Shown: piece by piece, positions 1,241-62,972 of the stretch
Layout: each line of letters starts with the position of its first letter
Numbering within the stretch: position 1 is the first letter of the stretch
Notes under the pieces: generated by a model
Databases searched by the model: none
What the model saw: the letters and a program-made list of their open reading frames with translations, nothing else
What the model was told of the DNA's origin: nothing
Made by a program: the position numbers and the translations under genes
IMG/VR virus record: IMGVR_UViG_3300021478_000022
Coordinates: 1 to 64,000 of that record
From: a virus
Strand: one strand, 5' to 3'
DNA length: 64,000 bases

Positions 1241-1254
1241 GTTTCTCAACCTTT

Positions 1255-41193: not shown

Positions 41194-41201
41194 GACTTGG
41201 A

Positions 41202-41390
41202 TTAACCTCCTTTCGTCGCGTAATCGATGATTTCTTGCACCCTTGCCTCAGGCAACGGTGGCTGCTCAGGAATGGAGTCCCATGCACACTGCGCACAGAC
41301 GAAGATGCCGTTCCAGTCCGGTATCGGCTCTGGCGCCAAGATGGCGCTCACCACTGTATCCATTGCTCGTTGGCAGCGAGGGCAGTTCAT
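41202..41390 (-). CDS. Small zinc-ribbon protein
   Basis: MNCPRC...FVCAQC. Confidence 0.55.
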   Translation of the reverse strand: MNCPRCQRAMDTVVSAILAPEPIPDWNGIFVCAQCAWDSIPEQPPLPEARVQEIIDYATKGG

Positions 41391-41539
41391 TCCTGCACCT
41401 CCTGCTTGAGCGCCTCGATCACCTGATCGAACGCCTCTTGGAGTGGTTCGGCCTGTTCGGCATCGTCAAGGTGGATGCCCAGTTCCAAGGCCAGTCCGAC
41501 CTTCTCGATCAGGTTCTCCATCGCTTCGCTTGTGGTCAT
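41387..41539 (-). CDS. Small acidic helical protein (50 aa)
   Basis: Translated by hand; ATGA overlaps at both ends. Confidence 0.5.
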   Translation of the reverse strand: MTTSEAMENLIEKVGLALELGIHLDDAEQAEPLQEAFDQVIEALKQEVQE

Positions 41540-47508: not shown

Positions 47509-48461
47509 GCTTCCATTCCCATGACCTTCAAAAGCTGCTTGGCCCTTGCCGCCGTCGTGTGATATTCCCGCGCATATTCCTGAAGGGCGCGACTCTTGGC
47601 GGTTGCGTCATGCGCCAAGGCTTCATCAATGTGCTCGGGCAGCGTATCCGCAGTGCAGTTGACAATCAGTTCCGCCGGGAACCAGGGATCGCGCACATGA
47701 TCGGGATAGCCCACGAAAATGGGAATGGTCCCGCACGCCGCCGCCTCGAAGGTGCGCAGCGAATCTGCCAAGTCTGCCGCTGAAGGACAGAGCGCGAACT
47801 TGGCACGCCGCAGCATAGCCAAATATTCGTCTTGGCCCAGTCCCAAGCCGCATGTGGCAATGACCGACCGATGCTTCTTCGCAGTCCGAAAGACATTCCT
47901 TAGCATCGGCCAGCGGACTTCGTGTCCCGGTAAACACGTCGCCGGATCGCCAACGAAGAACAAGTCGATGGGGCGAGACGACGATTCTGCAAACCACCGG
48001 GACGGCGCTGCGAAATTCAAATGGTGCGGCTTCATGGGATAGGTCACTTTGCCAGAAATCTCTTTGCGGAAATAGGCGTCGACGTGAATCTTGGGACGGG
48101 TGATCTGCCATGCCGCGTCCCAGCCTTCCACGAAAGCCACCTTGCCGCCCTTGCTCAAATTCCGCTGCCATTCCTTCGCCCACGTCCACGACCAGTCCAC
48201 GTTCTTTTTTCGATTGAAGCAAGCATTGAAGATTATGAGGTCATATTTGCCAGTCGGCCATCTTATACCATTCCTTGTGCCACTGATCGCCGCCACGGCC
48301 GCTTCTCGTACTCCATCGGGCTCTATATCGGACTTGTGCAGCCACGAGGCATTGATCGCATCAATGATGTTCTCCTCGCCTAGAACCTCCTGCAAACCAT
48401 CCCAAAGACAGGCGCTCAAATAATCGCACTCCCCTGACGAGGTTACGAAGGATACCCGCAT
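47505..48461 (-). CDS. GT-B glycosyltransferase, paralog B
   Basis: DYLSACLWDGLQEVLG, SLRTFEAAACGTIP, HTTAARA shared with 44919-45968. Confidence 0.75.
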   Translation of the reverse strand: MRVSFVTSSGECDYLSACLWDGLQEVLGEENIIDAINASWLHKSDIEPDGVREAAVAAISGTRNGIRWPTGKYDLIIFNACFNRKKNVDWSWTWAKEWQRNLSKGGKVAFVEGWDAAWQITRPKIHVDAYFRKEISGKVTYPMKPHHLNFAAPSRWFAESSSRPIDLFFVGDPATCLPGHEVRWPMLRNVFRTAKKHRSVIATCGLGLGQDEYLAMLRRAKFALCPSAADLADSLRTFEAAACGTIPIFVGYPDHVRDPWFPAELIVNCTADTLPEHIDEALAHDATAKSRALQEYAREYHTTAARAKQLLKVMGMEA

Positions 48462-48462
48462 C

Positions 48463-49020
48463 AATCCCTCGGAAAGCAGTAGATACTCATTTCCACACCG
48501 CCCAGCACATGTCCCTCAGCTTGAGGAGGTCCTTGCCCTTGGCAAATTCATCCACGGCATGGTTCACACCAAAACCAGGGTCGTCGCCGTAGTCATGCCC
48601 GCAGAGAAGACCGCCCGGCCTGATCTTGGGCCAGTAAAGGTCGATGTCCTTCTTGATGTAGGCGTAATCGTGGTTACCGTCGATCCAGACGAAATCTAGG
48701 TCGTTCGGCAGAAACCGAGGAGCCTCCGCACTGGGCATACGCAAGATCGCGAAGTGCCTGCCGTCATCGTAAGGATGGAGACGCCCACGGCAAATCCTGA
48801 GATTGTGCTCCTCGGCAGCAGCCTCATTTGCCCCGACTATCCCGTAGCCCTCGTAGGTGATCCACGGATCGACCAGAAAGAGGAAGCGCACTCCTTTTTC
48901 CAGAAGCGCCAGCGAGCTGATGCCCCACTGGACGCCGATCTCCACACCCACCCAGCCGGGCTTGATGAATGGCAAAAGGTTGTCAACGGATGCCATTTAA
49001 TCCCTCGGGAAGCAGTAGAT
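48463..49020. repeat. 22-bp direct repeat flanking a methyltransferase gene
   Basis: aatccctcggaaagcagtagat (48463-48484) vs aatccctcgggaagcagtagat (48999-49020). Confidence 0.85.
48487..48996 (-). CDS. Methyltransf_24-type SAM methyltransferase
   Basis: GVEIGV..G.S, VDPW, DFVWIDGNHDY, PGGLLCGHDY. Confidence 0.88.
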   Translation of the reverse strand: MASVDNLLPFIKPGWVGVEIGVQWGISSLALLEKGVRFLFLVDPWITYEGYGIVGANEAAAEEHNLRICRGRLHPYDDGRHFAILRMPSAEAPRFLPNDLDFVWIDGNHDYAYIKKDIDLYWPKIRPGGLLCGHDYGDDPGFGVNHAVDEFAKGKDLLKLRDMCWAVWK

Positions 49021-49575
49021 GCACTGCTCCTTGATGAACAGGTCGTACTTGTTATCCACAGCCCCCACCACGTCGTAAATCTGCTGGAAGGTCGGGTTTT
49101 GCTTGCGGTCCATCCCCTGCCCGTGCGCCCCTCTGTCCCACCACACGTCGGAGCAGAACGTCGAGGCATCGTCGATCAGGATGAACGGCCGCGACTTCCA
49201 GGGTACGGCAAGGATGAGGCGCAGTTCCTCCAAGAGAACACACTGCCCGTGGCGTGGGTCGAAGGAGGTGGGCTTGGCCCCGTCGTAGTGGGCGTCGAGC
49301 CAGAAGACGGTTTTCTTGTGCGGCGTGAGGATTTCCGGCAGCACGTCGAGGCTGGAGCCGTGGTGGATGCTCAGGCGGGTGGTGTCGAACCGCTTGCAGG
49401 CTTTGTCCACCATCTCCGCATCTACCTCGATGCCGTGCAACTCCATGAATCGCGGCGCCGCGAACGCCAGCGCCACGGCCATCGACGTGCCTTCGGACAG
49501 GCCGGTCTCGATGTACACGTCCCCCCAGATATGGGGGAGGTAGGTGGCTCGGGGAGTCAGGGGTACGGTGCCCAT
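48997..49575 (-). CDS. SAM methyltransferase-like protein
   Basis: YIETG..G, GIE, G.S..LP, FWLDAH, ILIDD. Confidence 0.7.
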   Translation of the reverse strand: MGTVPLTPRATYLPHIWGDVYIETGLSEGTSMAVALAFAAPRFMELHGIEVDAEMVDKACKRFDTTRLSIHHGSSLDVLPEILTPHKKTVFWLDAHYDGAKPTSFDPRHGQCVLLEELRLILAVPWKSRPFILIDDASTFCSDVWWDRGAHGQGMDRKQNPTFQQIYDVVGAVDNKYDLFIKEQCIYCFPRD

Positions 49576-49799
49576 TATTGAGATACCTCTTTGAGCAGAC
49601 GATCGCGCAACTGACAAGCCTTCTCAAAGGTCGCCGTCTCGTACCAGCGCCGGTCGCCACCGAGCAGGTGAACTATGACTCGTGGAGCTATTGAAGCCCG
49701 GCAGGACGCTATTTCACCATCTCTGCCTTCCGCCGCCTCGATGGCTAGGATGTAGTCGCTTCGGAATTGGTCGCCGCTGGGCATTGCAATGAATTTCAT
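49575..49799 (-). CDS. Hypothetical protein
   Basis: Coupled at both ends. Confidence 0.5.
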   Translation of the reverse strand: MKFIAMPSGDQFRSDYILAIEAAEGRDGEIASCRASIAPRVIVHLLGGDRRWYETATFEKACQLRDRLLKEVSQ

Positions 49800-50713
49800 G
49801 GGAAGTTGATGTCCTCCAATTTTCTGAGTCTGTCCACGAGATTATTGATTTCGTTCAACTTGCACGCCACCTGACAATTCTCGTGCACCGGCACTGACTG
49901 CGGAGCCCGGTCGAGGATATCCTTGAGGGAGTCCTTGTAGATGTTGCCCAGCACGAACTCCGGTCCATGCTTCCGCATGTACGCGCACACGTTCACGCTG
50001 CCGTCCTCGAAAATGAAGGGGACCATGTGGAACCCTTCGCACCGCGCGTACCCGTGCTTCTTCCGGGCCTCCTCGAACTTGTACCCCGTCACCTGCATCA
50101 GCGGGTGCGTGAAGTCCGGTGGCTTGATGTCCACCGTTTCCCCGTGGAACTTCAGAGCGGGCCTGCACTGGACGTAATCGGCCCCCACCTCCTCCGCGAG
50201 CCTGAGCGTCTCCAGCAGGTAGGCCCCATCTTCCTTGGCCCCCCGGTAGTTGAACGCGAACCCCAGCGTCTTGCAGGGCCGCAGGGCGCGGATGCACTCC
50301 GGTTTGTAGGGTCGGTCGGTCATGGTGACCCTGATCCACTGGAGCAGGGAGGGGTCGAAGCGTGGCATGGCCAAGGCGTTGGTGAACATGCCTTGATCGA
50401 GACCATGCACCTTCGCACTTTCGACCAGCGTTCCGATGTCGGGGTGAAGGGAAGGGTCGCCGCCTCCCGTCCACGTCACGGCTTTGACTCCCAAGGGTTC
50501 GCACTCTTCCAAGAGAACGCACGCCCGGAACGTCTCTAAAAACACCTTCCTAAATCCCCCAAGGTCTCCATTTGAATAAAAACATTGTGGGCAGTGCGCC
50601 TGGCAAACCCCGCTAGGGCTAATCTCTATCCCCACCGGGTAGACGCGCCGTCCCGCCATGTGCTCAGCGAGTTGGGGATGCAGCGCCAGTTTGTCTTGGG
50701 GGGAAAAACGCAT
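49796..50713 (-). CDS. Radical SAM enzyme with C-terminal SPASM/Twitch-like Cys cluster
   Basis: CQAHCPQC (CxxxCxxC), TGGGDP, FTNA; C..DG.V..C..GNI..CQVAC. Confidence 0.9.
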   Translation of the reverse strand: MRFSPQDKLALHPQLAEHMAGRRVYPVGIEISPSGVCQAHCPQCFYSNGDLGGFRKVFLETFRACVLLEECEPLGVKAVTWTGGGDPSLHPDIGTLVESAKVHGLDQGMFTNALAMPRFDPSLLQWIRVTMTDRPYKPECIRALRPCKTLGFAFNYRGAKEDGAYLLETLRLAEEVGADYVQCRPALKFHGETVDIKPPDFTHPLMQVTGYKFEEARKKHGYARCEGFHMVPFIFEDGSVNVCAYMRKHGPEFVLGNIYKDSLKDILDRAPQSVPVHENCQVACKLNEINNLVDRLRKLEDINFP

Positions 50714-50741
50714 CAGGTAATCCTAATCGACAAGCTGGACG

Positions 50742-51059
50742 TCATCGGTCGTCATCATCGAAAACCTCGTCATCGCTGGTCCCCGTAGGTCCAGCCAACG
50801 CACGCGGCAAATCCCACGGGCTGATCGGCTGCACCTTCGCCGCCTTGGCAACGAGCCGCGCCGCTTCCTCGGTGACGGCCGTGATGCGGTAGACCGAGCC
50901 GCCGCCGAAAAACTGCGTGACGAAAGAGCCGTCCTCCTGCGGGATTTCGATGCGTCCCATCTTGGCGCCGAACCGCTCCTCTTCGCTGACGCGCCCCGCC
51001 ATCTTGACGTGGCCCATCAGTTCGACCACGGCCCACATTTCTTGCTTGGCTTCGCTCAC
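50742..51059 (-). CDS. Conserved phage hypothetical protein
   Basis: WAVVELMGH..AGRVSE..FG..RIEIP. Confidence 0.65.
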   Translation of the reverse strand: MSEAKQEMWAVVELMGHVKMAGRVSEEERFGAKMGRIEIPQEDGSFVTQFFGGGSVYRITAVTEEAARLVAKAAKVQPISPWDLPRALAGPTGTSDDEVFDDDDR

Positions 51060-51083
51060 TTTTTGGCTCCGTAAATCAACTGT

Positions 51084-51419
51084 TTAAGCCGGATCTTGGG
51101 TTTCCCGATACCAACGGTCGGCCTCGATCAGGGCTGTGAAAGGGTCGTCATCGACAAAACCACCACCTTGCTCAAGCCGGTTCACGTCGGGAATAACAAC
51201 GAGCCATTGCGTTCCGGGACCTTGGCTGATCGGCCACCATCCCCGCCGCATCATCACGTCGAAGGCGTTGCGGGCCAAGGCCGCGAATTGCAAATCGGCC
51301 ACGTTGTCCTCTTCCGACAACAGGATCGGGAAGCCAGTCTGTTTGACAACCGCAGGGAACTGGTCTGAGGCGGGCGCCGAAATAAGCCACGGCGCCGGCG
51401 TTAGCTTGTTCAGGTCCAA
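51084..51419 (-). CDS. Hypothetical phage protein
   Basis: TPAPW...D.QF.ALARN pattern. Confidence 0.55.
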   Translation of the reverse strand: MDLNKLTPAPWLISAPASDQFPAVVKQTGFPILLSEEDNVADLQFAALARNAFDVMMRRGWWPISQGPGTQWLVVIPDVNRLEQGGGFVDDDPFTALIEADRWYRETQDPA

Positions 51420-51472
51420 GGCTTTCCCCTTTACTGGATGTCACGATTGCCAATGTGGGCAGTAGGACGTTG

Positions 51473-51679
51473 CTACTTGAATGCCGCGATTCGCTCGCCG
51501 AGAACCCCGGATAGGGCGGTCATCAGGCTCCACTGTCTTTCGAGCCTGCCCTTCTCTTCCCCATCCAGCCCTGCAAACATGGCTGAGGTAAGAAAGGCGG
51601 TGAGTTTGCTCAGCTTGTCGTCAAGTTCCCTTTTCTCACTCACGACGTGCTCTCGATGCGGTTGCATGTAATCCTCCAT
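51473..51679 (-). CDS. crAss001_48-like small helical protein
   Basis: EKRELDDKLSKL..F...L.RQ...M......L.ERI. Confidence 0.7.
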   Translation of the reverse strand: MEDYMQPHREHVVSEKRELDDKLSKLTAFLTSAMFAGLDGEEKGRLERQWSLMTALSGVLGERIAAFK

Positions 51680-51691
51680 TGGAGTTGGGCG

Positions 51692-51889
51692 TCACTCGCT
51701 GCCCCACTCGGGGCCGTCGTCCTCGTAATCCCAATCGTCGCATGGATCGCACCCGCAATCTCCGTCTATGATTGGCTGCCGACAGCCGTGGCAGACCTCG
51801 ATCATTGGCTCCGTGCCGCGCGTGCGCATGCAGCCAGCCGCATGGCAAATGTCGTCACAGCACGGCTTGAAATCAATCGGGCATAGCAT
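51692..51889 (-). CDS. Small Cys-rich protein
   Basis: Many Cys in 65 aa. Confidence 0.45.
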   Translation of the reverse strand: MLCPIDFKPCCDDICHAAGCMRTRGTEPMIEVCHGCRQPIIDGDCGCDPCDDWDYEDDGPEWGSE

Positions 51890-51913
51890 CGCAATCCCCG
51901 TAAAACAGCTTTG

Positions 51914-53056
51914 TCAGTTGCCTTGCGACCACCGATCCCACCCCGCGTCCGCGTACAACCGCACCGCGCTCAACTGCCGACCAATATCCTCCAACTCCCC
52001 TTCCCTGAAGCATCGCCTTGCCAGTGCAGCCATGTCCTTGTGATCCACCCCATTGCACCCGAAGTCCCTTTCGAGTATCCCGTCCGGTCCGTCCGGCGGT
52101 TCATGGTGCCGGGGCTGTTTCTGCGAGTCCTTGATCCTGAACGCCAACCCGCTCATGTGCAGCCAGGGCGGACATTCGCAGTTGATGCACAGGTAGCCGT
52201 TCTGCGCCATCCTGACCCCCAGGTGCCCCTCGTAGAACGTGCACCCGTCCCGCCAGCGCCCCACCGCACGCCACGCATCCATGTTGATGAGCGCCCACGC
52301 GGACGGACCCATTGCCCACGATGCGCCGCGCGTCCGGGGCCAGCCCCCCATGGCCTGCCAGCCCCATCCGAACTGCATCTCGGACCACACCATCGCCCCG
52401 ACCTCATGCCGCAGGATGGGGTCGCGCCATGTGCGGCGGATGATCTCGGGCCAGGTGTCCCCAAGGCCGGGTTCTTTGCACGTCTCCAGCGCCTTGTCGT
52501 GCATCCGCTGCCAACACCAGTAGCCGTCGTTCCAGTTGCCATCGTGATGCTCCGACCCGTAGAAACAGTCGCGCTGGGTGTCCCCGTTCTGGCCGAAGAA
52601 CCCCTCCAGCCCGAGTTCGCACGGCATCACCTTGGCGCAGGCCAGATGCCACGCCTCGAAACTGGTGGTCATGCCAATGGCCCCGACCTTGCGCCCTGAC
52701 CACGTGCGCTCACCGATCTGGTCGAGGGCATCCATCGCGGTTTCAAGCCACCCCATGCTGGGCCTGACGGCATCTTCAATGAGGAACGCCCATGGGGTCG
52801 TCACCAGACTCATCAGGTAGTTGAGGTTGTAGCTTATGCCGTAGGTCGGGCCGGGGTTATCAACCCATTCAACGTCATTGGGCTCGCAGACGCTAATCTG
52901 CCGCAGTTGGTCGTTGGGGTCGCTGCTGCCGTCGTCCGATACGATCTGCCGGTAGGGCAGCTTCGTGAACTTGCGGAGTTCCCGGAGGGAGACGCCAAGG
53001 TGCTTGTAGCTGTCGCCCAGCGTGGCGGTGACGACGGTGATGCGGTCGAGTGTCAT
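51914..53056 (-). CDS. GT2 (GT-A) glycosyltransferase
   Basis: ITVVT, IVSDDGS, G.S..LN, FLIEDA (DxD-like), G..L....W..VG. Confidence 0.8.
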   Translation of the reverse strand: MTLDRITVVTATLGDSYKHLGVSLRELRKFTKLPYRQIVSDDGSSDPNDQLRQISVCEPNDVEWVDNPGPTYGISYNLNYLMSLVTTPWAFLIEDAVRPSMGWLETAMDALDQIGERTWSGRKVGAIGMTTSFEAWHLACAKVMPCELGLEGFFGQNGDTQRDCFYGSEHHDGNWNDGYWCWQRMHDKALETCKEPGLGDTWPEIIRRTWRDPILRHEVGAMVWSEMQFGWGWQAMGGWPRTRGASWAMGPSAWALINMDAWRAVGRWRDGCTFYEGHLGVRMAQNGYLCINCECPPWLHMSGLAFRIKDSQKQPRHHEPPDGPDGILERDFGCNGVDHKDMAALARRCFREGELEDIGRQLSAVRLYADAGWDRWSQGN

Positions 53057-53071
53057 ATTTGGCCTAATCCT

Positions 53072-53437
53072 CTAATTCAAAGGCGATGTCATGGGACCGT
53101 ACCACTTGGTCTTTCCGTCAAGGTTCGCTTTGTCGACTGTTATCTCGTCGCCATTGCCAAAACGGACCACGCCGTTAGCAACGCAGACTATGGTGGAACA
53201 TGGGTCGAACGGGCGCTTTATCCAGTACCAGCCACTTGCGAACCGTTTCCCATCGGCGGACGCTTGTCCCTTTAGCTTCTCGACCTCTGCCTTCAGTTCG
53301 CTGTTCGTCCTGTAAAGCCTTGTCAACTCAAGCTGCGATACCGCATAATTTCGGCACATAATCTCAATCGACTTGGCCAGCGTAAGCGGCTCGATGGTTT
53401 CCGGTTCGTCCATTGCTTGTCGGTCGGGTTGCATCAT
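53072..53437 (-). CDS. Hypothetical protein
   Basis: Coiled coil plus SGWYW..WYGP. Confidence 0.55.
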   Translation of the reverse strand: MMQPDRQAMDEPETIEPLTLAKSIEIMCRNYAVSQLELTRLYRTNSELKAEVEKLKGQASADGKRFASGWYWIKRPFDPCSTIVCVANGVVRFGNGDEITVDKANLDGKTKWYGPMTSPLN

Positions 53438-53577
53438 ATCCCAGACTTCCTCTTCTTGTCCCAGTAGGGACTACGGCACTTGGCGCAACGTGTCGGTCTG
53501 CCATTTCTGCGAGGTGTCCACGAGCACCCGCAGCGCTGACATTTCACCTTCGGCAGCTTTACGCTTGTGGTGTCCAT
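53434..53577 (-). CDS. 47-aa zinc-ribbon protein
   Basis: Translated by hand: KCQRCGCSWTPR..PTRCAKCRSPYWDK. Confidence 0.7.
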   Translation of the reverse strand: MDTTSVKLPKVKCQRCGCSWTPRRNGRPTRCAKCRSPYWDKKRKSGI

Positions 53578-53588
53578 ATCTGGATACC

Positions 53589-53618
53589 ACTATACGCCAC
53601 GTCCTATCCCTTCGTCAA
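53589..53618 (-). promoter_or_regulatory. Internal sigma70-like promoter
   Basis: TTGACG-N18-TATAGT. Confidence 0.55.
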
Positions 53619-54880
53619 GCCTGATACCGCAAAATCGCTGACGCCACTTCTTCCGACGGGATCATGGCCATACATTTTGGCGCAGGCGGCTCGGTCAGCA
53701 CTGGGTTCATGCACAGGTCACCGTCCTTCTCCGACCCGTCGTTCAGCGGCACCGTGCGCGACTTCCAGCAGGCTGTGGTGCGGCAGCAGTCCAGCGCCCC
53801 CACGGTCGAGAACAGCGTCTGGAGCGGGTAGGTCGTCCAGTGCCGTGGTTCCCTTGCCCCTCCGATGGTCACGGCAGGTTTCTCCAGAGCTGCCGCGAGG
53901 TGCTGGAGCATCGTCACCCCCGACAAGACCCCCTGTGAGTGGTAAACGAGCCGCACGAGCTGTCTGAGGCTGGTCTTGCCCAAGAAGTCGATGACCCCGC
54001 GCAGAGGCTTGTGGATGTGCTCGTGCGACCCAACCTGCACGAACAGCACCTTCCCTTGCAAGCGATCCACCACCTCCTGATAGAAGGGGTACTGCTTGGC
54101 AGTGTAGTCGGACTTCACTCCGGCGTTGACGAGCCAGAATTTCTGGTCGCGCTTGGTCGCCTCGGTCACCTGATTCATCCACGACTTCTCCTCCGGCGAG
54201 AGCCACAGCATCGGCCGATTCGTGTGGCACTTCAGCGGCACCTGTAGCGCCTCCCCCAAGAACTCGGTGTACGCCTCAAGGAAGTGGATGGCGCGCTGGT
54301 TCGACTCGTGGATCGCCGGGTAGTGTACGACCACCTCCTCGGCGCCCATCGCCTTGGCCGTCTCCACCGTAACCACGTCGGGGTTGTGCTCCCAGAACTC
54401 CGGGGCGCTCGTCTCCACAGCCGTGATGAACCTTCCGGGGTGCTGCTTGTGGAGGCTGTAGACCCCGGCCGTCATGCACAAGACGTCGCCGGGTGAGAGC
54501 ATGTGACGGAGGAGGAGGACTCGTGGTGCTTGGGTCATGACTTTCGGCCTGTAAATGCACTGGGAACAGTCGGTCAGGGTCACATGGTCGTTGCGGTTGG
54601 GCTGGCGGCGCCCCGGACACTTGCACTCGAACAGGTCGAGGAACTTCGACCCGCCGCACTGGACGCACTCGCGCTTCTGGATCTCGCCCTTCTCATCGCG
54701 GACGCGCTTCCAGAGGTAGGGGCAGCGTTCCACCTTGACACCGTGGACGCCGCTGCCGCCCCAGAGGCGGTTGTAGTCGGGATTGGTGTGGTACAGGTAG
54801 CAAAGGCGGCAAAAATCCGTGCTGTACGGCTGGCCGTCTGGCGGTATCCGGTCGCAGGCGCAGGGTCTCACAGCGTCCAT
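53615..54880 (-). CDS. GT9 heptosyltransferase-like enzyme with N-terminal Cys-rich domain
   Basis: SPGDVLCMT, NPDV, FVQVG, DFLGKTSLRQL, HLAAAL, C-terminal CC..ACW..C..KCM.MI. Confidence 0.85.
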   Translation of the reverse strand: MDAVRPCACDRIPPDGQPYSTDFCRLCYLYHTNPDYNRLWGGSGVHGVKVERCPYLWKRVRDEKGEIQKRECVQCGGSKFLDLFECKCPGRRQPNRNDHVTLTDCSQCIYRPKVMTQAPRVLLLRHMLSPGDVLCMTAGVYSLHKQHPGRFITAVETSAPEFWEHNPDVVTVETAKAMGAEEVVVHYPAIHESNQRAIHFLEAYTEFLGEALQVPLKCHTNRPMLWLSPEEKSWMNQVTEATKRDQKFWLVNAGVKSDYTAKQYPFYQEVVDRLQGKVLFVQVGSHEHIHKPLRGVIDFLGKTSLRQLVRLVYHSQGVLSGVTMLQHLAAALEKPAVTIGGAREPRHWTTYPLQTLFSTVGALDCCRTTACWKSRTVPLNDGSEKDGDLCMNPVLTEPPAPKCMAMIPSEEVASAILRYQA

Positions 54881-55566
54881 GTCAGGGTCCCTGAAACGTT
54901 GCCGCAGAGGCACGGCGATTGGCCTAGTTCCTTCACCTGATCGAACCGAACCAGGAATGACTGTGGGGTGTCGCAGTTCGCCACCGCAGGCGGCTCAGCG
55001 ATGTACTGGATGTTGCTGAAGTCGACGGCGCAAGTGAAAGCCCTCCACTGACTCCCGGAGCACTGCAAGCCCACCCGACACTGGCTTATGAGCCCGCTGG
55101 TCTGGTTGGACACCCAGGCGTTCAGGGACGGCTGGAACGCTGCGGTGAGGGTCTGGTTGCAGTTGAAGGTGTTGCCGATGGTCACATGGATGGTTCCCGG
55201 CAGGCTGCAGTTGCACGACAGGCTCGACGCGCTGGGGAACGACCCCACCGAGGTCGCCGACGAACTACCCACCGAAGCACAGCAGAGTGAGTTGTTCAGG
55301 ATCTGGAACTGACACGTCGTCCCGGAGATCACCACGGGGGGCCAGAAGATGTTATCGCAGGTCGAGCGCGGATCGTCGTACACCAGCTGGTTCGTGCCGT
55401 CCGAGCCGATGATGGACAGGACGTACCCTCCCGGCACTCCGGTGGCGTTGGTGATCTGGATGACGTACAGGACACCGCCGACCAAGACGTAGCCGTTGTA
55501 GTTGCCGTCCGAGTCGACAATCATGCAAACCTGAAAGGGGACGCAGGGTAGCGCCATGGGGAACAC
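54868..55566 (-). CDS. Cys-rich virion-like protein with Ser-rich linker
   Basis: CCASVGSSSATSVGSFPSASSLSCNC; C-terminal domain similar to that of 55567-56607. Confidence 0.6.
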   Translation of the reverse strand: MFPMALPCVPFQVCMIVDSDGNYNGYVLVGGVLYVIQITNATGVPGGYVLSIIGSDGTNQLVYDDPRSTCDNIFWPPVVISGTTCQFQILNNSLCCASVGSSSATSVGSFPSASSLSCNCSLPGTIHVTIGNTFNCNQTLTAAFQPSLNAWVSNQTSGLISQCRVGLQCSGSQWRAFTCAVDFSNIQYIAEPPAVANCDTPQSFLVRFDQVKELGQSPCLCGNVSGTLTWTL

Positions 55567-56607
55567 TCAGAAGGTTATTCTAACGTCGATACCAGCAATC
55601 GTTGGTATACAGTTGCAGGCCACCGGCAAACTGGTGGCCTCAAGAACGAACGGGCTACAGTTGGACACCAGTCCGGTAGACTCCTGTCCGTTGATAATCA
55701 GATGCCATATCCCACCACCACTGGTCGGTTGACACTTCACTGCAAAGGTGGGAGCGCTCGACGTTGGGCACAATCCCAGCACCGAGAAGTTTTCCCACTG
55801 GTTGGTCGTCGGGTTGTAGGTCAGGGTATAAGTCCCATTGCAGTTTGTCGTGCCCGTGACCGTGGCGAAGATCGTGTTCGGGACCGTCAATCCTGGACAG
55901 CACGTCTGGTTACCGCTGCTGGACGAGGACTGGCTGGGCAAGCTGCTCTGGAAGCTGCTGGACGAACTGAGCAGACTGCTTGGCTGACTACTGACACTCG
56001 AACTGGACGATGAACAGATCGGTGTCACCAGCAGGCAAAACTGGGTCCGCAGGTTGCAACTGCTCGCAGAAAACTGACTGGAAATCTTGCTGGTGACGCT
56101 CGACACGACGCTGGTCACCGAACTCGACGGCTGGCCGCTCGTGATGGACGTAGGGGACGAAGGCACCGACACGGCACTGCTGGGTTGGCTGGGCTGACTC
56201 ACCTGACTCGACGTCACACTGGAGACGTGCGACACGACCGAACTGACAGATGACAGAGCCGACGAGACGAACGATGACTTCTGCGAACTGGCACTCGACC
56301 CCGATATGGACGAGAACGACCCCCGTCCCACACAGCAGATCAGCGAGACGACGTAGAGCGGCAGTCCGTTGAAATTCCCCACCAGTCGCGCCCGGTAGGT
56401 GCCGCGCGGGACAGGTACGCCATTCGGCTCGAATACCCAGCCTGCCTCCCGGTCCCTGAGCGTTGGCACCCCACCAGCAGCCTGCTGGTTCTGGCATGGG
56501 TAGACGGAGCCTTGTGCCGGTCCCGTGACGCGGATGACGCTCGGGACGACCGGATAGACGGGCTGGCGCGGTCCGAAGAACGGGGGGACAAGGTTGGTTG
56601 ACAGCAT
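55567..56607 (-). CDS. Mucin-like Ser-rich virion-like protein
   Basis: ~135-aa central region dominated by Ser (SSV repeats) between two folded domains. Confidence 0.7.
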   Translation of the reverse strand: MLSTNLVPPFFGPRQPVYPVVPSVIRVTGPAQGSVYPCQNQQAAGGVPTLRDREAGWVFEPNGVPVPRGTYRARLVGNFNGLPLYVVSLICCVGRGSFSSISGSSASSQKSSFVSSALSSVSSVVSHVSSVTSSQVSQPSQPSSAVSVPSSPTSITSGQPSSSVTSVVSSVTSKISSQFSASSCNLRTQFCLLVTPICSSSSSSVSSQPSSLLSSSSSFQSSLPSQSSSSSGNQTCCPGLTVPNTIFATVTGTTNCNGTYTLTYNPTTNQWENFSVLGLCPTSSAPTFAVKCQPTSGGGIWHLIINGQESTGLVSNCSPFVLEATSLPVACNCIPTIAGIDVRITF

Positions 56608-56608
56608 G

Positions 56609-57562
56609 TCATTTGAAGGTCGTCACGATTCCCGCCCACGATGCTTGGGTCAGTCCCGACAGGGAGGCACTTGGCGCCGTGGTGTTCGACAGGACGCGAT
56701 AACCCTCCGCCACCGCTATCGCTGTCCCGGTGATGGATTCGGTCACGTCTTCCCCACCGGGCGTGAACCCGCCGCCCCACGAGTACGCCCCAGAATACCC
56801 CATCAGGAGGAAGGATGCCTCCACATATTCGCTCGGAGTGGTCGTCGTGCCCGTGCCAGCGGTGGGAGTAGAGGTCATGCCGTTGCCGACGCCGTTCAGG
56901 TCCTTGACGCCAGTGATGCCTTTCACCTGAACCGCTTGGATCGTGATAGCCGCGGCGATGCCGCTGGCGGCGAATGCCTCTATATCCCCCGTCAGACCTC
57001 CCCCTATCGTCCAGCAGCCTATCAGCGATGTTTGCGATGGTGTGTTGACGGCGTTCTGCAAGGTCATCGGCAGACCGCCGTAGTAGAGCTGCAAGCCCTC
57101 GTTCTGTCCCACCAGCGTCGCTGTGACCAGCAGCATCGTCCCTGGCGCTGTGGTGATGCTCGGCAGCGTCAGTTGGGTCACAGCGACAGCCTGAGCCGTG
57201 CCAAGGTTGGTGCGAACGATGCCGGGGAGCGCCGCTGCGGAGGAAGTGCTGCTGGACGAGGAGCTGGCACTGCCGCCCAGCGGGCAGCAATTCGTGACGT
57301 AGAGGGGCAGCCCGGCGTAGTTGGTCACAAGGCGACCATCGTAGTAACCGGGTCCCAGCACGATGCCGTTGGGCTCCATGACGTACACAGGCACCCGGTC
57401 GCGCGGGGTCAGGCCGTTGAACTGCACAATGAAGGCCGGGTAGACGTTGGCCCCCAAGATGGCTGGAGCGTAGATGCGCAGGATCTCGTTCACCTGCGGG
57501 TAGATGGGCTGCTCTTGCCCCAAGAATGGCTGCGTCAGGTCGGTGGAGTCGGCGATCTGCAT
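56609..57562 (-). CDS. Virion-like protein: shared N-terminal domain, poly-Ser linker, beta-sandwich
   Basis: N-terminal domain paralogous to 55567-56607 (RDR..EPNG..Y..RLV..GLPLYV..CC). Confidence 0.65.
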   Translation of the reverse strand: MQIADSTDLTQPFLGQEQPIYPQVNEILRIYAPAILGANVYPAFIVQFNGLTPRDRVPVYVMEPNGIVLGPGYYDGRLVTNYAGLPLYVTNCCPLGGSASSSSSSTSSAAALPGIVRTNLGTAQAVAVTQLTLPSITTAPGTMLLVTATLVGQNEGLQLYYGGLPMTLQNAVNTPSQTSLIGCWTIGGGLTGDIEAFAASGIAAAITIQAVQVKGITGVKDLNGVGNGMTSTPTAGTGTTTTPSEYVEASFLLMGYSGAYSWGGGFTPGGEDVTESITGTAIAVAEGYRVLSNTTAPSASLSGLTQASWAGIVTTFK

Positions 57563-58806
57563 TACACGAACCCTGTGAGCCCCTTGAGATTGATGGGGAA
57601 AAGAGCCTCATCGAATACGAATCCCCTGATTATCTGGGTCCGCCAACCAGCCCGCCGTTCGTCCTCAATGCCCAGCTTGTAGGTCTGGTAGTACCTGACC
57701 CCATCGACCTGACTTCCAGTCACGAACGGCAGCACCCCCGTGTACACTTGGCTCATGAACCCCGCCGTGGCGCGATAAATCCGGTTGTAGAAGTTCGACA
57801 CGTCCTGCGCCGCGATAGCCGCTGCCGTAGCCACATCCGCCGCCAGAGGCAGGCCGTTGACGTCGTACCGGACCGTGAAATACGACCACAGATACCCCGT
57901 CCCCGCTGCACTGGCGAACTGCGCCGGGGCCGGGACGTTGAGCGAGTAGAGCGGCGTCAGTTGCCACTGGAGCGAGTCACTCCGCACAGTTTCTTCGGTT
58001 CCGTACCATTGATTCCTGCGGTGGAAGTAGACCGTCACGGACGATGGGGCGCGTCCCGACCCCACGTCGATGTACTCCATGTCGTCTTCGAGGTCGCCGA
58101 AGAACTGCGTCTGCTTCGCCGTGAAGGCCCCATCCGGCGCGCCAGCAGCGACGATGGTGTAGGGGGCCGCTTTGGTCAGGTCCTCTGCGATGGTGAACCC
58201 GAGGTAGTCCATGATCTGGTTCAATGCTTCCCAGGCTGAAACCCCCGGAAAGATGAACCCTTCTGGGGTCCCGGTGACCGATTGGGGTAGGCCGGGGAAA
58301 GGCCCCAGGAACTGCACCATTTGCGCCCAGAGGTCAGCTATCATCGAAGCCCAGGTCCAGTTCACCCCTCCGTAGAACGTGCCCGGATAGGCCGGCGCCT
58401 GCACGTTGTACTGGCTCACCGTGGGGAACTGAAACCAGGGGTTGTAGAGCACCCCCTGCTGATCGGTGATCTGCACGAGGTAGAGCGCATCGGGGTCCGC
58501 CGCCTGCCCCCGGCTGACACAGCGCGACTGCACGATGGTCAGACCCGTGAAGATCAGCGGCGGGTTGTGCAAGTCGTCGAACTGGAGTTCGAGGTTCGTG
58601 AAGTAGGGGTTGATGGTGTTCAGGTCGGATCGCTTGAGAAGTATCCAGCCCACGGTGGGCCAGCGCCCGGAGGGGATGTAGAGGGAGTTGGCCTTGTCGA
58701 GGTCGGGTAGGGCATCGCGGTGGTAGTAGGACCGGGCTTCGCGCACGAGGCGCGGGTCCTGTAATTCCACCCCCTGCGTACCAGCGAACCCGAAAGTATT
58801 GGCCAC
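57562..58806 (-). CDS. Probable tail/baseplate hub protein
   Basis: ~414 aa; LYLVQITD..G and SAWEAL..IMD.LG hub-like segments; directly upstream of fibre-like genes. Confidence 0.5.
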   Translation of the reverse strand: MANTFGFAGTQGVELQDPRLVREARSYYHRDALPDLDKANSLYIPSGRWPTVGWILLKRSDLNTINPYFTNLELQFDDLHNPPLIFTGLTIVQSRCVSRGQAADPDALYLVQITDQQGVLYNPWFQFPTVSQYNVQAPAYPGTFYGGVNWTWASMIADLWAQMVQFLGPFPGLPQSVTGTPEGFIFPGVSAWEALNQIMDYLGFTIAEDLTKAAPYTIVAAGAPDGAFTAKQTQFFGDLEDDMEYIDVGSGRAPSSVTVYFHRRNQWYGTEETVRSDSLQWQLTPLYSLNVPAPAQFASAAGTGYLWSYFTVRYDVNGLPLAADVATAAAIAAQDVSNFYNRIYRATAGFMSQVYTGVLPFVTGSQVDGVRYYQTYKLGIEDERRAGWRTQIIRGFVFDEALFPINLKGLTGFV

Positions 58807-58816
58807 ATGCCATTCC

Positions 58817-60748
58817 TCAGACTGTCGGCCCATCCGCCTCAAGCTGCGCCACCGCCGCCGTGACGGCACCGGACTTCACCTTGAAGTGTTCTACCAGAAG
58901 TTCGATGCCCGTGTTCGCCGACATGAGAGCGGCGTTCAAGGTCGAGTCAAAGAAGTAGTCCCCCACCAAAAAGATGCCGGGGTGCTCAACGGGTTCCGGG
59001 CTGTGTTCGCCCCGCAATTCCTCCGCTGGCCATGAACCCGGCTGCGCATTGATTGCCCCGACGTACCTATCAACCTGCGCCTCGACCAGTTGATCCTCCG
59101 CATCGTCGCGCATGAACGGTGGTAGGGATTCGAGGACGTGGTTCACGATGCACTCGTCGTCCTGATTCGCCGAGCACATGAGCAGCGCGTCCCCGCCCGC
59201 CAAGAGGAAGCTGAGGACGTGACCACCTTGCGCCGCACGCTGCCTCAGCACCTTCTCCTGCCTGTTGGCGCGCTCGTGGGCCTTGGCGTAGGAGGAGTCG
59301 TTTTCCGCCATGTCGCGGCGCTCGACGGCCTCGTGGTAGCAGATGTACTTCCAGTCCTCAAGGTCCAGCCGGTCGTCGATCCAGATGTGCATGGGCGGCA
59401 TGTAGTCCTCGCCGCGTGCGAGCAGTTCGAGGTCGTTGGCCCCTTCCACCATGTCCATGTCGTGCTCGATCTTCACCTTGTCGCCGTCCACGATCTGCAC
59501 GGTGATGCCTTCCAGTGCCCCGACCGTGTGCGGCAGGTTCTCCGGTTTCTCTCCGGGCATCATCGCCACGATCTCCTGCCACAGCTTCTCATCCACCTTC
59601 ACCTTCGTGGACTTCTGGTGCTTGGCCCAGCGCGTCGAGTCGTCGTAACAGCACAGGCCGTTCATCATGTCCATCATCCAGAACTCGCCCGGCAGCTTCA
59701 GCTTCTCCCACCACTTCGTCCGGAACAGCATCGACACCCGGAGGTAGTGCGCTGGGAGGTCGTAGTGGGCGCAGACCTCGTGAATCGCGTCCGCCAGTTT
59801 CCCTTCCCACTGGATGGTCCTGAGCCAGTGGTTCGGGAGAGCGACCACCACCGCGTCGAAGTCCTCGAAATGCTCCGCGATGTAGTCCTGACCCGACTCG
59901 CGAGTGAACACCCGGTAGTTCCCGTCGATCTTCGCTATCCGCGTGACCCGATGGCAGGTCTTGACCTCCGCGTCAATCTTCGCGGACAGCGCCTCCGGGA
60001 TGCGGCCGATGCCACCGACGACGTGGTAGAGCTGCATATAGTCGTCGTTGTCCATCAAGATGTTCTTGATCCCGTTCAGGCCGTTGCAGGTGTGACTCTC
60101 GGTGGCCAGGTCGGTATGCACCGCCGTCTCGATGAAGTCGCGGGCCACCTTGTCGTCCCCAACCTCCTCCATCAGGCACTCGCGGAAGGTCTTGGGCGCC
60201 CACGGATGCTCGTTGTCCGGCTGCCAGCGGTGGGCGTACTTTTCCAGGGGCATCAGTTCGACCATCTTCGCGTGGAACGCCTCGATCCGCTTCCGCGTGT
60301 CGTAGCCGTGTACCTTCTCCACCTCGTCCAGGTCCCTCAGCACCTCGCCCTTCAGGATCACCGCGCCACCGGCTATGTCTACCGTTTCCAGTCCCAAATC
60401 CTTCTCGATCAGGAGGCGCATGGGGTCCTTGCCACCGGGTCCCAGGTACTCGTACAGTTCCGCGACACCCGCCTCGAAGAGGGTGCCGTCCGAGAACTCG
60501 TCGGTCATGATCTTGCCGCCGACCTCCTCGTCCGCCTCGAAGATGGTCACGTTGGCGTCGGGCAGGCGCTGGTTGATGATGTAGGTCGCGAACAGCCCAC
60601 CCGGTCCCCCTCCGATGACGGCAACGCGGGGGCCGTCTTTCTGTTTGGGGGCGCGCTTCTTGCGCGGGGCGATGCGGGTCCAGCGGCCTGGGCCTGATGC
60701 GGTCCAGCCTGAGCCGGTGGGAGGTTCGGAGCCGTAGTGCTCATCCAA
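58817..60748 (-). CDS. Flavin-dependent amine oxidase-like enzyme with an inserted HExxE domain
   Basis: VAVIGGGPGG, IFEA..VGGK, EAG, VVGG, FDAVVVALP, IFLVGDY..LNAAL. Confidence 0.82.
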   Translation of the reverse strand: MDEHYGSEPPTGSGWTASGPGRWTRIAPRKKRAPKQKDGPRVAVIGGGPGGLFATYIINQRLPDANVTIFEADEEVGGKIMTDEFSDGTLFEAGVAELYEYLGPGGKDPMRLLIEKDLGLETVDIAGGAVILKGEVLRDLDEVEKVHGYDTRKRIEAFHAKMVELMPLEKYAHRWQPDNEHPWAPKTFRECLMEEVGDDKVARDFIETAVHTDLATESHTCNGLNGIKNILMDNDDYMQLYHVVGGIGRIPEALSAKIDAEVKTCHRVTRIAKIDGNYRVFTRESGQDYIAEHFEDFDAVVVALPNHWLRTIQWEGKLADAIHEVCAHYDLPAHYLRVSMLFRTKWWEKLKLPGEFWMMDMMNGLCCYDDSTRWAKHQKSTKVKVDEKLWQEIVAMMPGEKPENLPHTVGALEGITVQIVDGDKVKIEHDMDMVEGANDLELLARGEDYMPPMHIWIDDRLDLEDWKYICYHEAVERRDMAENDSSYAKAHERANRQEKVLRQRAAQGGHVLSFLLAGGDALLMCSANQDDECIVNHVLESLPPFMRDDAEDQLVEAQVDRYVGAINAQPGSWPAEELRGEHSPEPVEHPGIFLVGDYFFDSTLNAALMSANTGIELLVEHFKVKSGAVTAAVAQLEADGPTV

Positions 60749-62972
60749 TGTCCACTCTCCACTTCCGCGCCGCGCGAGTCACCCGCTTGCGCCGTCCCCG
60801 TCTTCCCTTGGACTTGCCAGGCTTCTTCGTGTGCTTGCCCTCGACCGCAAAATCCCCCGGAGTTGCTGGGAGCCCACCACCCGACCCGGCCATGTCGATG
60901 GTCGCGGTGTCCTCGTGCAGTTCGGGACCAGTGGGAGCGGAAGGCAAAGTTGCCGCAAGACGGATAGACAAGGGCGCTGATTCCAAGGCCCTCTGGAAGC
61001 CCGGTGGCGGCTGGAAAGACGGCATAGGGACAAATGCCGGTGGGGACGGTTCCACGCCAGTCCTGAGCCATTCCTGCGCTTCTGTGATGCCCCTCTCGGC
61101 AGCTTGGCGGATGGTGATGGGTGTGTCGGCGCAGCGGTCGTTGTAATCCCACGGAACTCGGAACATCTGCCAGACTGGATCGCCAGCGCGGTAGATGTTG
61201 GTCCCCTGTATGCCTAGCTTTTCCAGCGCCAGATGGTTCTCGCGTACACGGTTGTCGTGGATGGCATCGCGTGCCCGATAGGGAAACCCACTGCGAACGA
61301 AGGGATGGGACAACACCGTCTCCTGCCCGTCCGAGAAGGCACGCTGGATGTTCGTCCGCGCCACGTTTTCCAGATGCCCTTCCGAGAGAAACGTCCCCGG
61401 CGCGACTTGCTCCAGCACCTTCTCGCGGAACGCCTCTACGTCCGCGCCCTCAGCGACGTTCTCCGCAAGCGCATCCCGGATCTTCGTCAGCGTCTCCTGT
61501 GCATCGACCCCGGCGACCGTGAACGCCTTCTGCCGCGCCGCATCGTCCAGCTTGTCAAAGACAGGCCGCGTCACCACGTTCTTCCGCGCCAGTTCCCGCG
61601 CCGCTTCCTCGATGATCGGGTAATGGACCCGCTCCCCTCCCGGTGGCGCTTGCGGAGTGAAGGGCCTTGTCGGCGGGATGCTCTCGCTGGAACCCAGCGA
61701 TTGCTGGACATAGTGCTGCTCCGCAGGTGGCAATTCGTAGATGGCCCGATCGCGCTCCCCTTGCGGCATGGCGCGGAGTCGGAACAGAAGGGATTGGGCT
61801 TCATCGGGAGGGAGGGTTGGAGGTGGCGGGGGCGCACTCCCCGCCTGTGGTAACGGTGGCAACCTCTCCGCCACCTCCGACGCTCCCGCCAGTAGTGCCG
61901 CCAGCTGGGTCGTCCCCAAGAGGTCGGCCAGTTGCAGACGGTACTTGTTCACGAACGTCACGACCTGATGCCCCATCTCGCTGGGGTCGGCTGATTGGAG
62001 CGCGTCCCTGAGTTCGCGCTTGGCCGTGGCGCTGAGCTGCTTGGCCACAGTCATGGTGCGGTTGAGGATGCCCTGCGCACGACGGTCGAAGATGTCGTGG
62101 GCGAAGTAGGCGGATAGGGACAACGGCGCTGCAAACAATCCTTTGTCCCTGTTCAGGATGGCGCGCGCCAGGGACGGTCTGTCTGTGGCTTTGTATTTCT
62201 CCTTGAGCTGAGTGAGATAGCCAGGATTTACACTGCCAAGCGCATTAGCCATCTTCTGGGCGACATCTTCATCCGGTTCGCCCTTGTGCATCTTGTATTT
62301 CACGAACTCGTGCAAATCCTCGAAGCGATCCGGCAATTGCCGCGATACGGCTGGCGCTGCTACCGCCTGTTGAATGATGGGCTGTGCTGCTACCGGAACT
62401 GTCGTCTGCGCAGCGATTGGAGTCGCCTTCGGTTGTGCAGGTGGCTGGGACGCTGATGCCGGTTCAGGTCTAGCTGACTCCAAGTCGATGGCTATCTTTG
62501 ACCCTGTACGAGCGCGAACGATTATCTTGTTGCCACTAATGTCAAGTATTGGCCCACGGAGCGGTGGCAATCTCGACCCGCCGCCCTCACCGTCATAATA
62601 GAGAATCTGCTGGCCGACTTTAGGAGGGTTGGCTGGTCCGAATTTAGGCAGCTTGAAGAAGTCATCGTCTGTCGGTGGAGACGGACGTGGTGCCGTTTGT
62701 TGTTGTGGTGTCGGCTGTTGAGGCGCCTGCTTCTGCCCACTCTGTCTCCATACCTTACCTCCTTGCGGTCCCACTCCGACCTGAACCCATCCCGGCCCCG
62801 GCGGCTGAGGACCGTGAAAGTTCCCCTGCGCATCGAGCGCCAGGGCAATGTCGTCCTGCATCGCCAGTTCGGCAACGGCCAGCGCCTCGTCAAGATCGCG
62901 CGTCTCCGGGTCTTCGATGGCGCGCAGAAGCAACTGGGCAAAGCGGGCGCCGCGTTCCTTGGTGATGCTCAC
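60741..62972 (-). CDS. MuF-type head morphogenesis (minor head) protein with long N-terminal extension
   Basis: AFTVAG, RTNIQRAF..G, FPY, DNRVRENH, DPVW..PWDYNDRC; follows portal. Confidence 0.88.
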   Translation of the reverse strand: MSITKERGARFAQLLLRAIEDPETRDLDEALAVAELAMQDDIALALDAQGNFHGPQPPGPGWVQVGVGPQGGKVWRQSGQKQAPQQPTPQQQTAPRPSPPTDDDFFKLPKFGPANPPKVGQQILYYDGEGGGSRLPPLRGPILDISGNKIIVRARTGSKIAIDLESARPEPASASQPPAQPKATPIAAQTTVPVAAQPIIQQAVAAPAVSRQLPDRFEDLHEFVKYKMHKGEPDEDVAQKMANALGSVNPGYLTQLKEKYKATDRPSLARAILNRDKGLFAAPLSLSAYFAHDIFDRRAQGILNRTMTVAKQLSATAKRELRDALQSADPSEMGHQVVTFVNKYRLQLADLLGTTQLAALLAGASEVAERLPPLPQAGSAPPPPPTLPPDEAQSLLFRLRAMPQGERDRAIYELPPAEQHYVQQSLGSSESIPPTRPFTPQAPPGGERVHYPIIEEAARELARKNVVTRPVFDKLDDAARQKAFTVAGVDAQETLTKIRDALAENVAEGADVEAFREKVLEQVAPGTFLSEGHLENVARTNIQRAFSDGQETVLSHPFVRSGFPYRARDAIHDNRVRENHLALEKLGIQGTNIYRAGDPVWQMFRVPWDYNDRCADTPITIRQAAERGITEAQEWLRTGVEPSPPAFVPMPSFQPPPGFQRALESAPLSIRLAATLPSAPTGPELHEDTATIDMAGSGGGLPATPGDFAVEGKHTKKPGKSKGRRGRRKRVTRAARKWRVDIG

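Follow-up and report, generated by a model that had tools for sequence, protein, structure and literature searches.

What are the products of three neighboring genes that combine Cys pairs, Ser-rich stretches and C-terminal ends of different kinds, and where in a phage particle would they sit? We address this question for genes A (56609-57562, 317 aa), B (55567-56607, 346 aa) and C (54868-55566, 232 aa) of an uncultivated phage known from IMG/VR virus record IMGVR_UViG_3300021478_000022. The window, that is the whole stretch of DNA analyzed, comprises bases 1-64000 of this 78,687-bp record, which CheckV rates as complete, and the minus strand carries nearly all genes of the phage genome. We consider it likely that A and B belong to the tail tip of a tailed phage, where they probably bind receptors, and that in each of them an anchor domain sits on a gp27/VgrG-like hub and carries a Ser stalk that ends in an exchangeable tip. 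The coordinates of all domains and neighboring genes are collected in Table 1.

An anchor domain with variable tips

By aligning A and B with BLASTP, we found that their first ~92 residues are 46% identical (E 9e-19) and end in both proteins with GLPLYV(T/V)..CC; the local alignment of this domain, which we call the anchor, scored 181 compared to 29.2±5.6 in 2000 shuffles. The C-terminal parts of B and C are also similar, firmly over ~40-70 residues and not over the whole tip (BLASTP E 6e-6). With the Ser tracts left out, their alignment score of 83 was reached by none of 2000 shuffles (32.2±6.0), and an iterated hidden Markov model (HMM) of this Cys-rich "B-type" module puts B and C in one family (E 5e-16 and 2e-15, respectively). 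The tip of A is unrelated to those of B and C in shuffle-tested alignments. A preliminary description, made from the sequence alone, had proposed a common N-terminal domain of ~90 aa in A and B and a common Cys-rich C-terminal domain in B and C: both similarities are significant against 2000 shuffles, the second one for the start of the module. The CC pair that it had seen ahead of a Ser-rich stretch is likewise found in all three proteins, with a stretch of ~19 aa in A, 142 aa in B and ~20 aa in C.

Then, we searched 1.84 billion cluster representatives with an anchor profile made of A, its four homologues and the first 95 residues of B. This search returned 316 proteins or clusters (50% identity) at E ≤1e-3, including 180 at E ≤1e-10, with lengths of 85-1112 aa, and in the retrieved proteins 147 of 163 anchor matches start within the first 40 residues. 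The succession of anchor, CC, Ser linker and variable tip is family-wide. The CC pair is present in 114 of the 147 complete anchors, 85 of which continue with at least 10 Ser-rich residues, and the pair and the Ser-rich continuation co-occur (43/85 versus 3/31; odds ratio 9.6, Fisher p 4e-5). Neither A nor B has a Pfam or PHROG match, and nothing was found in PDB with the anchor/A alignment, by sequence or by profile. Judged from such searches, the anchor family is new and widespread, and both the anchor and the B-type module are without a counterpart in Pfam or PHROGs.

The tips of the family are of several kinds. In the retrieved set, an HMM of the A-type tip matches 26 proteins (A and 25 others), and that of the B-type module matches 27 anchor-bearing proteins in addition to C and its ortholog, which are the only carriers of the module without an anchor. 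The module has the consensus CCPN..P.TL.AT and closes with C.C and a final β-strand. Elsewhere in the family, the tip is the C-terminal β-sandwich of phage depolymerases, a Gly_rich_2, fn3 or TIG domain, or, in one case, LamG-like. Since the depolymerase β-sandwich, Gly_rich_2, fn3 and TIG are domains typical of phage adhesins, we count them in favor of an adhesin role.

Pairwise comparisons illustrate how anchors and tips combine. First, A and protein P0007 have anchors that are 66% identical and unrelated remainders. Second, the anchors of A and P0271 are 32% identical and their tips 36% identical over 202 aa. Third, identity between B and its ortholog P0139 falls from 89% in the anchor to 63% in the stalk and to 41% in the tip. 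In an anchor tree of 109 leaves (support by the Shimodaira-Hasegawa-like approximate likelihood ratio test, SH-aLRT, ≥80 on 58 of 107 branches), the tip class changes at least 28 times, compared to 39.9±1.8 times with shuffled labels; as there are fewer changes than in the shuffles, some inheritance is visible, but with many switches. The appendage family with exchangeable tips that the preliminary description had imagined is thus well supported by the 316 clusters, by their diverse C-termini and by the scattering of tip types on the anchor tree, and comparing homologous phages bears it out for B, where the tip has diverged much further than the anchor.

An AlphaFold model of A was obtained from a 41-row alignment, with a predicted local distance difference test score (pLDDT) of 89.2. 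Residues ~22-92 are modeled as a five-strand β-barrel (strands over 25-90, pLDDT 83-95), and the structure matches to this barrel are all OB-folds (S17, S12, IF1, eIF1A, S1 and TRAM domains; Z 5.3-6.6 over 57-82 residues), the OB domains of gp5 and VgrG not being among those listed. With Foldseek, the A model had no PDB match at E ≤1e-3. Since Z scores of 5.3-6.6 are within the noise range, we call the anchor OB-like, and its assignment as a small OB-like β-barrel is tentative. Residues 1-22 are among the best conserved of A (P12, Y21, P22) and yet are modeled with low confidence in isolation, which fits an arm that would become ordered only on a partner. In the A tip, residues 115-216 resemble jelly-roll, TNF/C1q-like lectin and carbohydrate-binding domains as well as fiber heads (Bdellovibrio Bd2439 fiber, Tuc2009 receptor-binding protein head, HFTV1 tail fiber, PM2 P1). 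These matches reach Z 5-8, that is the noise range, so that the tip is compatible with an adhesin and nothing beyond this.

The stalk of B contains a 15-aa Cys island, CNLRTQFCLLVTPIC (residues 184-198; 56014-56058), that is identical in ortholog P0139, the surrounding stalk being 63% identical; this island might serve for recognition or as one more clamp. Along the stalk, six kinds of Ser codons are used in mixed order (among them TCG 20, AGT 16, AGC 15 and TCC 9) and TRF found no tandem repeat in the DNA, so that replication slippage was dropped as the origin of the Ser tract. The tip of B had been described as AT-richer, which holds, mildly only, in a GC and codon scan: its GC content is 0.548, and 0.67 at third codon positions, compared to a genome mean of 0.606±0.037. 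As values this low are reached in 5.9% of windows of equal size, the signal is weak. A search of the ESM Atlas with the B tip gave no usable match, and the tip's own model is poor; with a neighboring 474-aa protein, the Atlas was uninformative as well.

Cys pairs bracket the stalk in B-type proteins, with LICC before and TCCPG after it in B, LCC and CNC in C, and HCC and CGC in P0007. By analogy, this suggests inter-chain disulfide or metal clamps at both ends of the stalk, to which the cystine knot of trimeric collagens is comparable; disulfide or metal knots at the CC pairs themselves are plausible, and the family-wide co-occurrence of the CC pair with Ser linkers speaks in their favor.

Some members depart from the common plan. 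Anchor-only open reading frames (ORFs) of ~100-132 aa end at the CC pair or in a short Ser run (L015:11242-11547, L019:11865-12194 and L013:12848-13246); ~22 of the 150 listed cluster representatives are of this type, and some lie right beside a full-length anchor gene. Such ORFs could encode plugs without a tip, with a role in setting the stoichiometry, or result from frameshifts or assembly breaks in Ser tracts. In L014 (11215-11970), an insertion of ~145 residues separates the N-terminal arm of the anchor from its barrel. Three proteins, P0176, P0180 and P0200, have the barrel part only, at their C-terminus, after ~180-250 residues that are unrelated and do not match the hub, and look like the same kind of variant as the L014 anchor.

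A gp27-like hub upstream of the anchors

The gene that precedes A encodes a 414-aa protein without a Pfam or PHROG match and without a PDB match by sequence or alignment profile. Its AlphaFold model, built from 38 homologue sequences (pLDDT 85.6), matched PDB structures with Foldseek at E 1.7e-11 to 1e-8 (probability 1.00). In structural alignments with VIA, the best scores were obtained with the Streptomyces contractile-injection-system spike 9gtr_q (Z 19.2, 313 residues aligned, root-mean-square deviation 3.9), VgrG1 7q5p (Z 17.6), the Mu baseplate protein gp44 9ki1_G (Z 16.6) and T4 gp27 1k28_D (Z 14.1), whereas siphophage Tal proteins reached Z 8-9 only. Contractile-system hubs (Z 15-19) are thus far closer to the model than Tal. 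The VIA alignments span residues 1-397 of the model, their counterpart in VgrG being the first ~350 residues, which form the gp27-like part, and the model shows the four-domain gp27-like fold of ~350-400 residues. As modeled, the protein is clearly a gp27-type baseplate hub, with membership of this family assigned by fold only. A role as major capsid protein was rejected for it, given that the capsid protein is encoded elsewhere (35-1249) and that the fold is that of a hub.

We found at least 324 homologues of the hub (49-72% identity for the 120 listed), on contigs of which the longest measure ~75-80 kb, so that the hub marks a sizeable clade of uncultivated phages. The hub alignment found no locus in GTDB genomes, hence no prophage or host clue, and a single hub protein used as query in viral contigs found no related locus.

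The anchor is tied to this hub by gene order and by gene fusion. First, of 14 IMG/VR relatives that were themselves found through the hub, 11 have one or two anchor genes right after the hub gene. Two anchor genes are present in 6 of the 12 anchor-carrying loci, this phage included, and the order A-type then B-type is common to this phage and relative L010. Second, in five clusters with mutually less than 50% identity (P0250, P0252, P0258, P0270 and P0271), hub and anchor belong to one chain, where the hub HMM covers residues ~8-440 (E 1e-75 to 1e-119) and the anchor lies at 411-549. Here, in these 11 relatives and in the five fused clusters, the anchor thus comes directly after a gp27-like module, as the next gene or in the same chain. 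Both the CC pair and the Ser-rich continuation are absent from four of the five hub-fused forms. P0271 (867 aa) unites hub, anchor, CC, B-type module and A-type tip in one chain; as a query in metagenome contigs, it found only two distant hub loci, without anchor. In the present genome, the TAA of the hub gene and the ATG of A overlap by one base (TAATG) and the A/B junction reads TGAcATG, and such tight junctions indicate that these genes are coupled.

We place the anchor on the hub mainly because VgrG and T4 gp27-gp5 have the same domain order, with an OB-like barrel behind the hub, whether as one chain or as two; fusion and synteny suggest that hub and anchor bind each other. In the arrangement that we propose, three anchors would cap the distal face of a trimeric hub, one per hub monomer as implied by the hub-anchor fusions, and would take the place of the gp5-type OB domain in T4 and VgrG. 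The CC pairs would leave the barrels together near the three-fold axis, and the Ser stalks (19 aa in A, 142 aa in B) would act as flexible tethers that present the tip, a β-sandwich in A and a Cys-rich module in B, for binding to the host surface. Recombination would reshuffle anchors and tips, so that host recognition could change while attachment to the virion is kept.

Several points weigh against this proposal. The presence of A, B and C in the virion, presumed in the preliminary description, and their binding to the hub are supported only indirectly, by hub synteny and hub-anchor fusion. The hub-anchor fusions are known from protein sequences only. The OB-fold assignment concerns a small domain whose Z scores lie inside the tool's range for unmatched models, and receptor binding by the tips is proposed from a weak fold resemblance and analogy only. 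Since each hub would offer three equivalent sites, the paralogous anchors A and B would compete for them and form mixed trimers or a mixed virion population, and how both are accommodated is unexplained. About half of the branches of the anchor tree are weakly supported, and the number of tip changes is below that of every shuffle, part of which may be tree error and part true inheritance. Finally, the hub is oddly placed behind portal, MuF and an amine oxidase, and no sheath, tube, tape-measure or wedge protein was recognized genome-wide with Pfam and PHROGs. A complex prediction for the hub with anchor residues 1-100, run without controls, scored 0.00 and speaks neither for nor against binding.

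The order of hub then OB-like barrel, being exactly that of VgrG and gp27-gp5, would also suit a central spike or cargo carrier, whose C-terminal modules would be effectors that are delivered or ejected, or devices that degrade or penetrate the envelope. C-terminal extensions of VgrG are variable ("evolved" VgrGs), and one member of the anchor family carries a depolymerase-type β-sandwich. However, Pfam and PHROGs detect no β-helix, lysozyme or other catalytic domain in the three proteins, a piercing needle would be rigid whereas the long Ser stalk is disordered, and the A tip weakly resembles lectin, TNF-like and fiber-head sandwiches. Moreover, a fast diverging tip on a conserved anchor is the pattern expected of host-recognition modules. 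We therefore judge a spike or cargo function improbable.

Compared with T4 gp27-gp5 and with VgrG of the type VI secretion system, the locus is alike in its hub fold (Z 14-19), followed by a small OB-like barrel and a variable C-terminal extension. It is unlike them in that it lacks a triple-stranded β-helix, a lysozyme and a PAAR partner, that the barrel continues into CC, a disordered Ser stalk and globular tips, that two paralogous barrel proteins are encoded per genome, and that sequence similarity is not detectable. Given that no β-helical needle follows the anchor (a disordered linker and a β-sandwich in A, the 142-aa Ser tract in B), A and B are not members of the gp5/VgrG spikes and would only work like their hub-capping part.

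A conserved N-terminal adaptor with an exchangeable head is known from the shoulder-neck-head organization of lactococcal receptor-binding proteins, from T7 gp17, from K1-type tailspikes and from siphophage Tal extensions. As in these adaptor-type proteins, a conserved virion-attachment module is combined here with recombining recognition modules, and the tip diverges far faster than the anchor. In contrast to them, the proposed seat of the anchor is the central hub and not Dit, wedge or nozzle, the anchor is a domain family of its own, and a low-complexity Ser tract with Cys pairs on either side replaces the coiled-coil or β-helix neck as linker. The likeness to eukaryotic virus spikes that had been suggested is a loose analogy that is not needed, the prokaryotic hub-plus-OB spike and adaptor-type receptor-binding proteins being nearer. 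That attachment is conserved while recognition modules recombine is a textbook principle of phages, and hub plus OB is an order already known from VgrG and gp27-gp5. What is new, besides the anchor family and the B-type module, is a CC, poly-Ser, CC stalk that replaces the coiled-coil or β-helix neck, the globular tips on a central hub through an OB-like plug, and the two paralogous plugs per genome. The locus thereby defines a large family of tail-tip proteins with a testable place in the virion, the gp27-like hub, and provides a clean natural example of anchor/tip reshuffling. The anchor could be used as a marker that leads to genes of host recognition in uncultivated phages of an abundant clade, and the hub-anchor pair is a candidate scaffold to study how different tips are mounted on one platform.

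Glycan genes and possible stalk glycosylation

Behind C, in an ORF spanning 53615-54913, we found a GT9-family glycosyltransferase (GT9a; PF01075, E 4.9e-10), which places a GT9/GT-B heptosyltransferase domain beside the gene of a putative substrate. The GT-B heptosyltransferases TibC and AAH O-heptosylate serines of the TibA and AIDA-I autotransporters (PMC4358343), and by analogy it is plausible that the Ser stalks are O-heptosylated with GT9a as the enzyme. Homologues of GT9a lie behind the fiber genes in six relatives (L007, L009, L010, L011, L014 and L019), and all Ser stalks of more than 50 aa belong to loci that have GT9a (5/7 versus 0/5, one-sided p≈0.03 for a small and phylogenetically non-independent sample). 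An HldE-like kinase/adenylyltransferase is encoded elsewhere in the genome (21094-22461), and GT9 and HldE homologues are found near the hub in 12 of 14 relatives.

Other observations count against glycosylated stalks. First, GT9a is not detectably closer to TibC than to lipopolysaccharide (LPS) heptosyltransferases: among PDB sequences, only WaaC and WaaF were listed (E 0.07-0.6), and TibC was not among the matches at E ≤1; Cys clusters are present in GT9a. Second, a second GT9 gene (GT9b) and HldE-like genes also occur in three relatives without anchor proteins (L012, L017 and L018), so that the glycan cluster does not depend on anchor proteins. A wider version of the idea would make the Ser stalks mucin-like tethers, clamped between chains by Cys-Cys at both ends and O-heptosylated and further tailored by the phage GT9s, the HldE-like enzyme and methyltransferases, with paralogous anchors competing for one hub and yielding virions with mixed tips; taken as a whole, we hold this version to be rather doubtful. 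If true, no glycosylated receptor-binding appendage of a phage tail would have been described before it, and CC, poly-Ser, CC stalks next to heptosyltransferase genes are in any case a target for asking whether phages glycosylate their adhesins.

In mycobacteriophages, phage-encoded glycosylation of capsid and tail-tube proteins, with Ser/Thr-rich extensions, is described (Freeman et al. 2023, as cited in PMC11600133). The present locus is alike in that a phage glycosyltransferase gene lies beside structural genes, with an HldE-like enzyme encoded in the genome. It is unlike mycobacteriophage virion proteins and autotransporters in that the putative targets are tail-tip stalks and not capsid, tube or passenger proteins and are known here from genes alone, and it is unlike TibC/AAH in that GT9a marginally matches LPS heptosyltransferases (E 0.07).

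Given that A, B and C run straight into GT9 and a large glycosylation and methylation cluster, and that no sign of their incorporation into virions was available, they might instead be non-virion, mucin-like glycoprotein carriers, made in the infected cell and, for example, displayed on the host or released from it, that serve in superinfection exclusion or matrix binding as substrates of the 17-kb glycan cluster, with the hub as an incidental neighbor. But five clusters have the conserved N-terminal domain in one chain with a structural hub, no signal peptide or membrane anchor was seen when the N-termini were read by eye, without a predictor, and GT9b and HldE-like genes are also found in the three anchor-less relatives, which makes such a role very unlikely. 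Also very unlikely is an anchor seated on the capsid lattice, with A, B and C as capsid decoration or head-fiber proteins: their genes are downstream of portal and MuF and the mycobacteriophage extensions offer a parallel (Freeman et al. 2023, as cited in PMC11600133), but the capsid protein and a gpD-like decoration protein are encoded elsewhere, and it is with the hub, not with a capsid gene, that the anchor shares synteny and fusions.

The glycan island as a whole (39315-54913) lies directly behind the fiber genes and encodes two GT9, one GT2 and two GT1/GT47-like enzymes, a sugar C-methyltransferase, about four other methyltransferases and a radical SAM/SPASM enzyme.

Gene C and the genome setting

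The N-terminal domain of C, which is lineage-specific, was rejected as a diverged anchor, its alignments with the anchors scoring 33 and 31 against shuffle means of 27-28. It has one homologue only, which is 97% identical, and no relative in the anchor-family set or in the phage genome. C has no Pfam or PHROG match, and gene C as a query in metagenome contigs found nothing. The B/C junction is TGA-GTG, in frame (55564-55569). B, TGA and C thus form a single frame of 579 codons broken by one stop (54868-56607), the GTG of C being the codon next to the TGA of B; the ortholog of C, P0276, is called from an ATG three codons further downstream. Read-through of the TGA would give a two-module fiber like P0194 or P0224. 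C is either an accessory fiber attached elsewhere or an extension of B.

Table 1. Domains of A, B and C and other features of the window
Feature	Position	Strand	Evidence or remark
Major capsid protein	35-1249		
Lambda gpD-like decoration protein	2156-2950		
Large terminase	10602-12155		
GT9-family glycosyltransferase (GT9a), Cys-rich N-terminus; candidate modifier of Ser stalks	53615..54880	(-)	PF01075
C, B-type Cys-rich tip module, aa 117-232	54871..55218	(-)	module HMM E 2e-15
C, Ser-rich linker, aa 97-116, ASVGSSSATSVGSFPSASSL	55219..55278	(-)	~20 aa
C, N-terminal domain, aa 1-96, ends NNSLCC	55279..55566	(-)	unrelated to A/B anchor
B, B-type Cys-rich tip module, aa 235-346, starts CCPGLTVPNTIFATV, ends CNC...IDVRITF	55570..55905	(-)	module HMM
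B, Ser-rich stalk, aa 93-234, 65/142 residues Ser	55906..56331	(-)	Cys island 56014-56058 inside
B, anchor domain, aa 1-92, ends GLPLYVVSLICC	56332..56607	(-)	BLASTP to A; 89% identical to ortholog P0139
A, A-type tip, aa 113-317, all-β sandwich	56609..57226	(-)	pLDDT 91-98
A, Ser-rich linker, aa 94-112, PLGGSASSSSSSTSSAAAL	57227..57283	(-)	~19 aa after CC; pLDDT <50 at 93-111
A, anchor domain, aa 1-93, ends GLPLYVTNCC	57284..57562	(-)	BLASTP to B, model
Baseplate hub, P0009, 414 aa, gp27/VgrG/Mu gp44-like; proposed docking platform for A and B	57562..58806	(-)	AlphaFold2 model, Foldseek, VIA
Flavin amine oxidase, 643 aa	58817-60748		
MuF protein	60741-62993		
Mu-like portal	62969-64528		extends past window end

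The genes follow each other in the order hub, A, B, C and GT9, the ATG of the GT9 gene overlapping the end of C by 13 bases. Upstream, portal, MuF, amine oxidase and hub form one tight block (57562-64528), distant from the terminase and capsid genes. Head-tail adaptors were also recognized in the genome, and a 1264-aa LamG/β-propeller protein is encoded beyond the window. A blastn search of the locus against GenBank phages gave no match. In a search of sequencing runs, only 6% of the sampled words were found, in two soil-metagenome runs, and no RNA run was listed, which is not evidence of habitat or expression.

The amine oxidase gene also lies between MuF and the hub in six relatives (56-65% identity), and its product may be a virion-borne or ejected enzyme. 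Finally, within the glycan island, an ORF with NUMOD4 and HNH_3 homing-endonuclease domains (44347-45690) overlaps a GT1/GT47-like ORF (44919-45968) in another frame.

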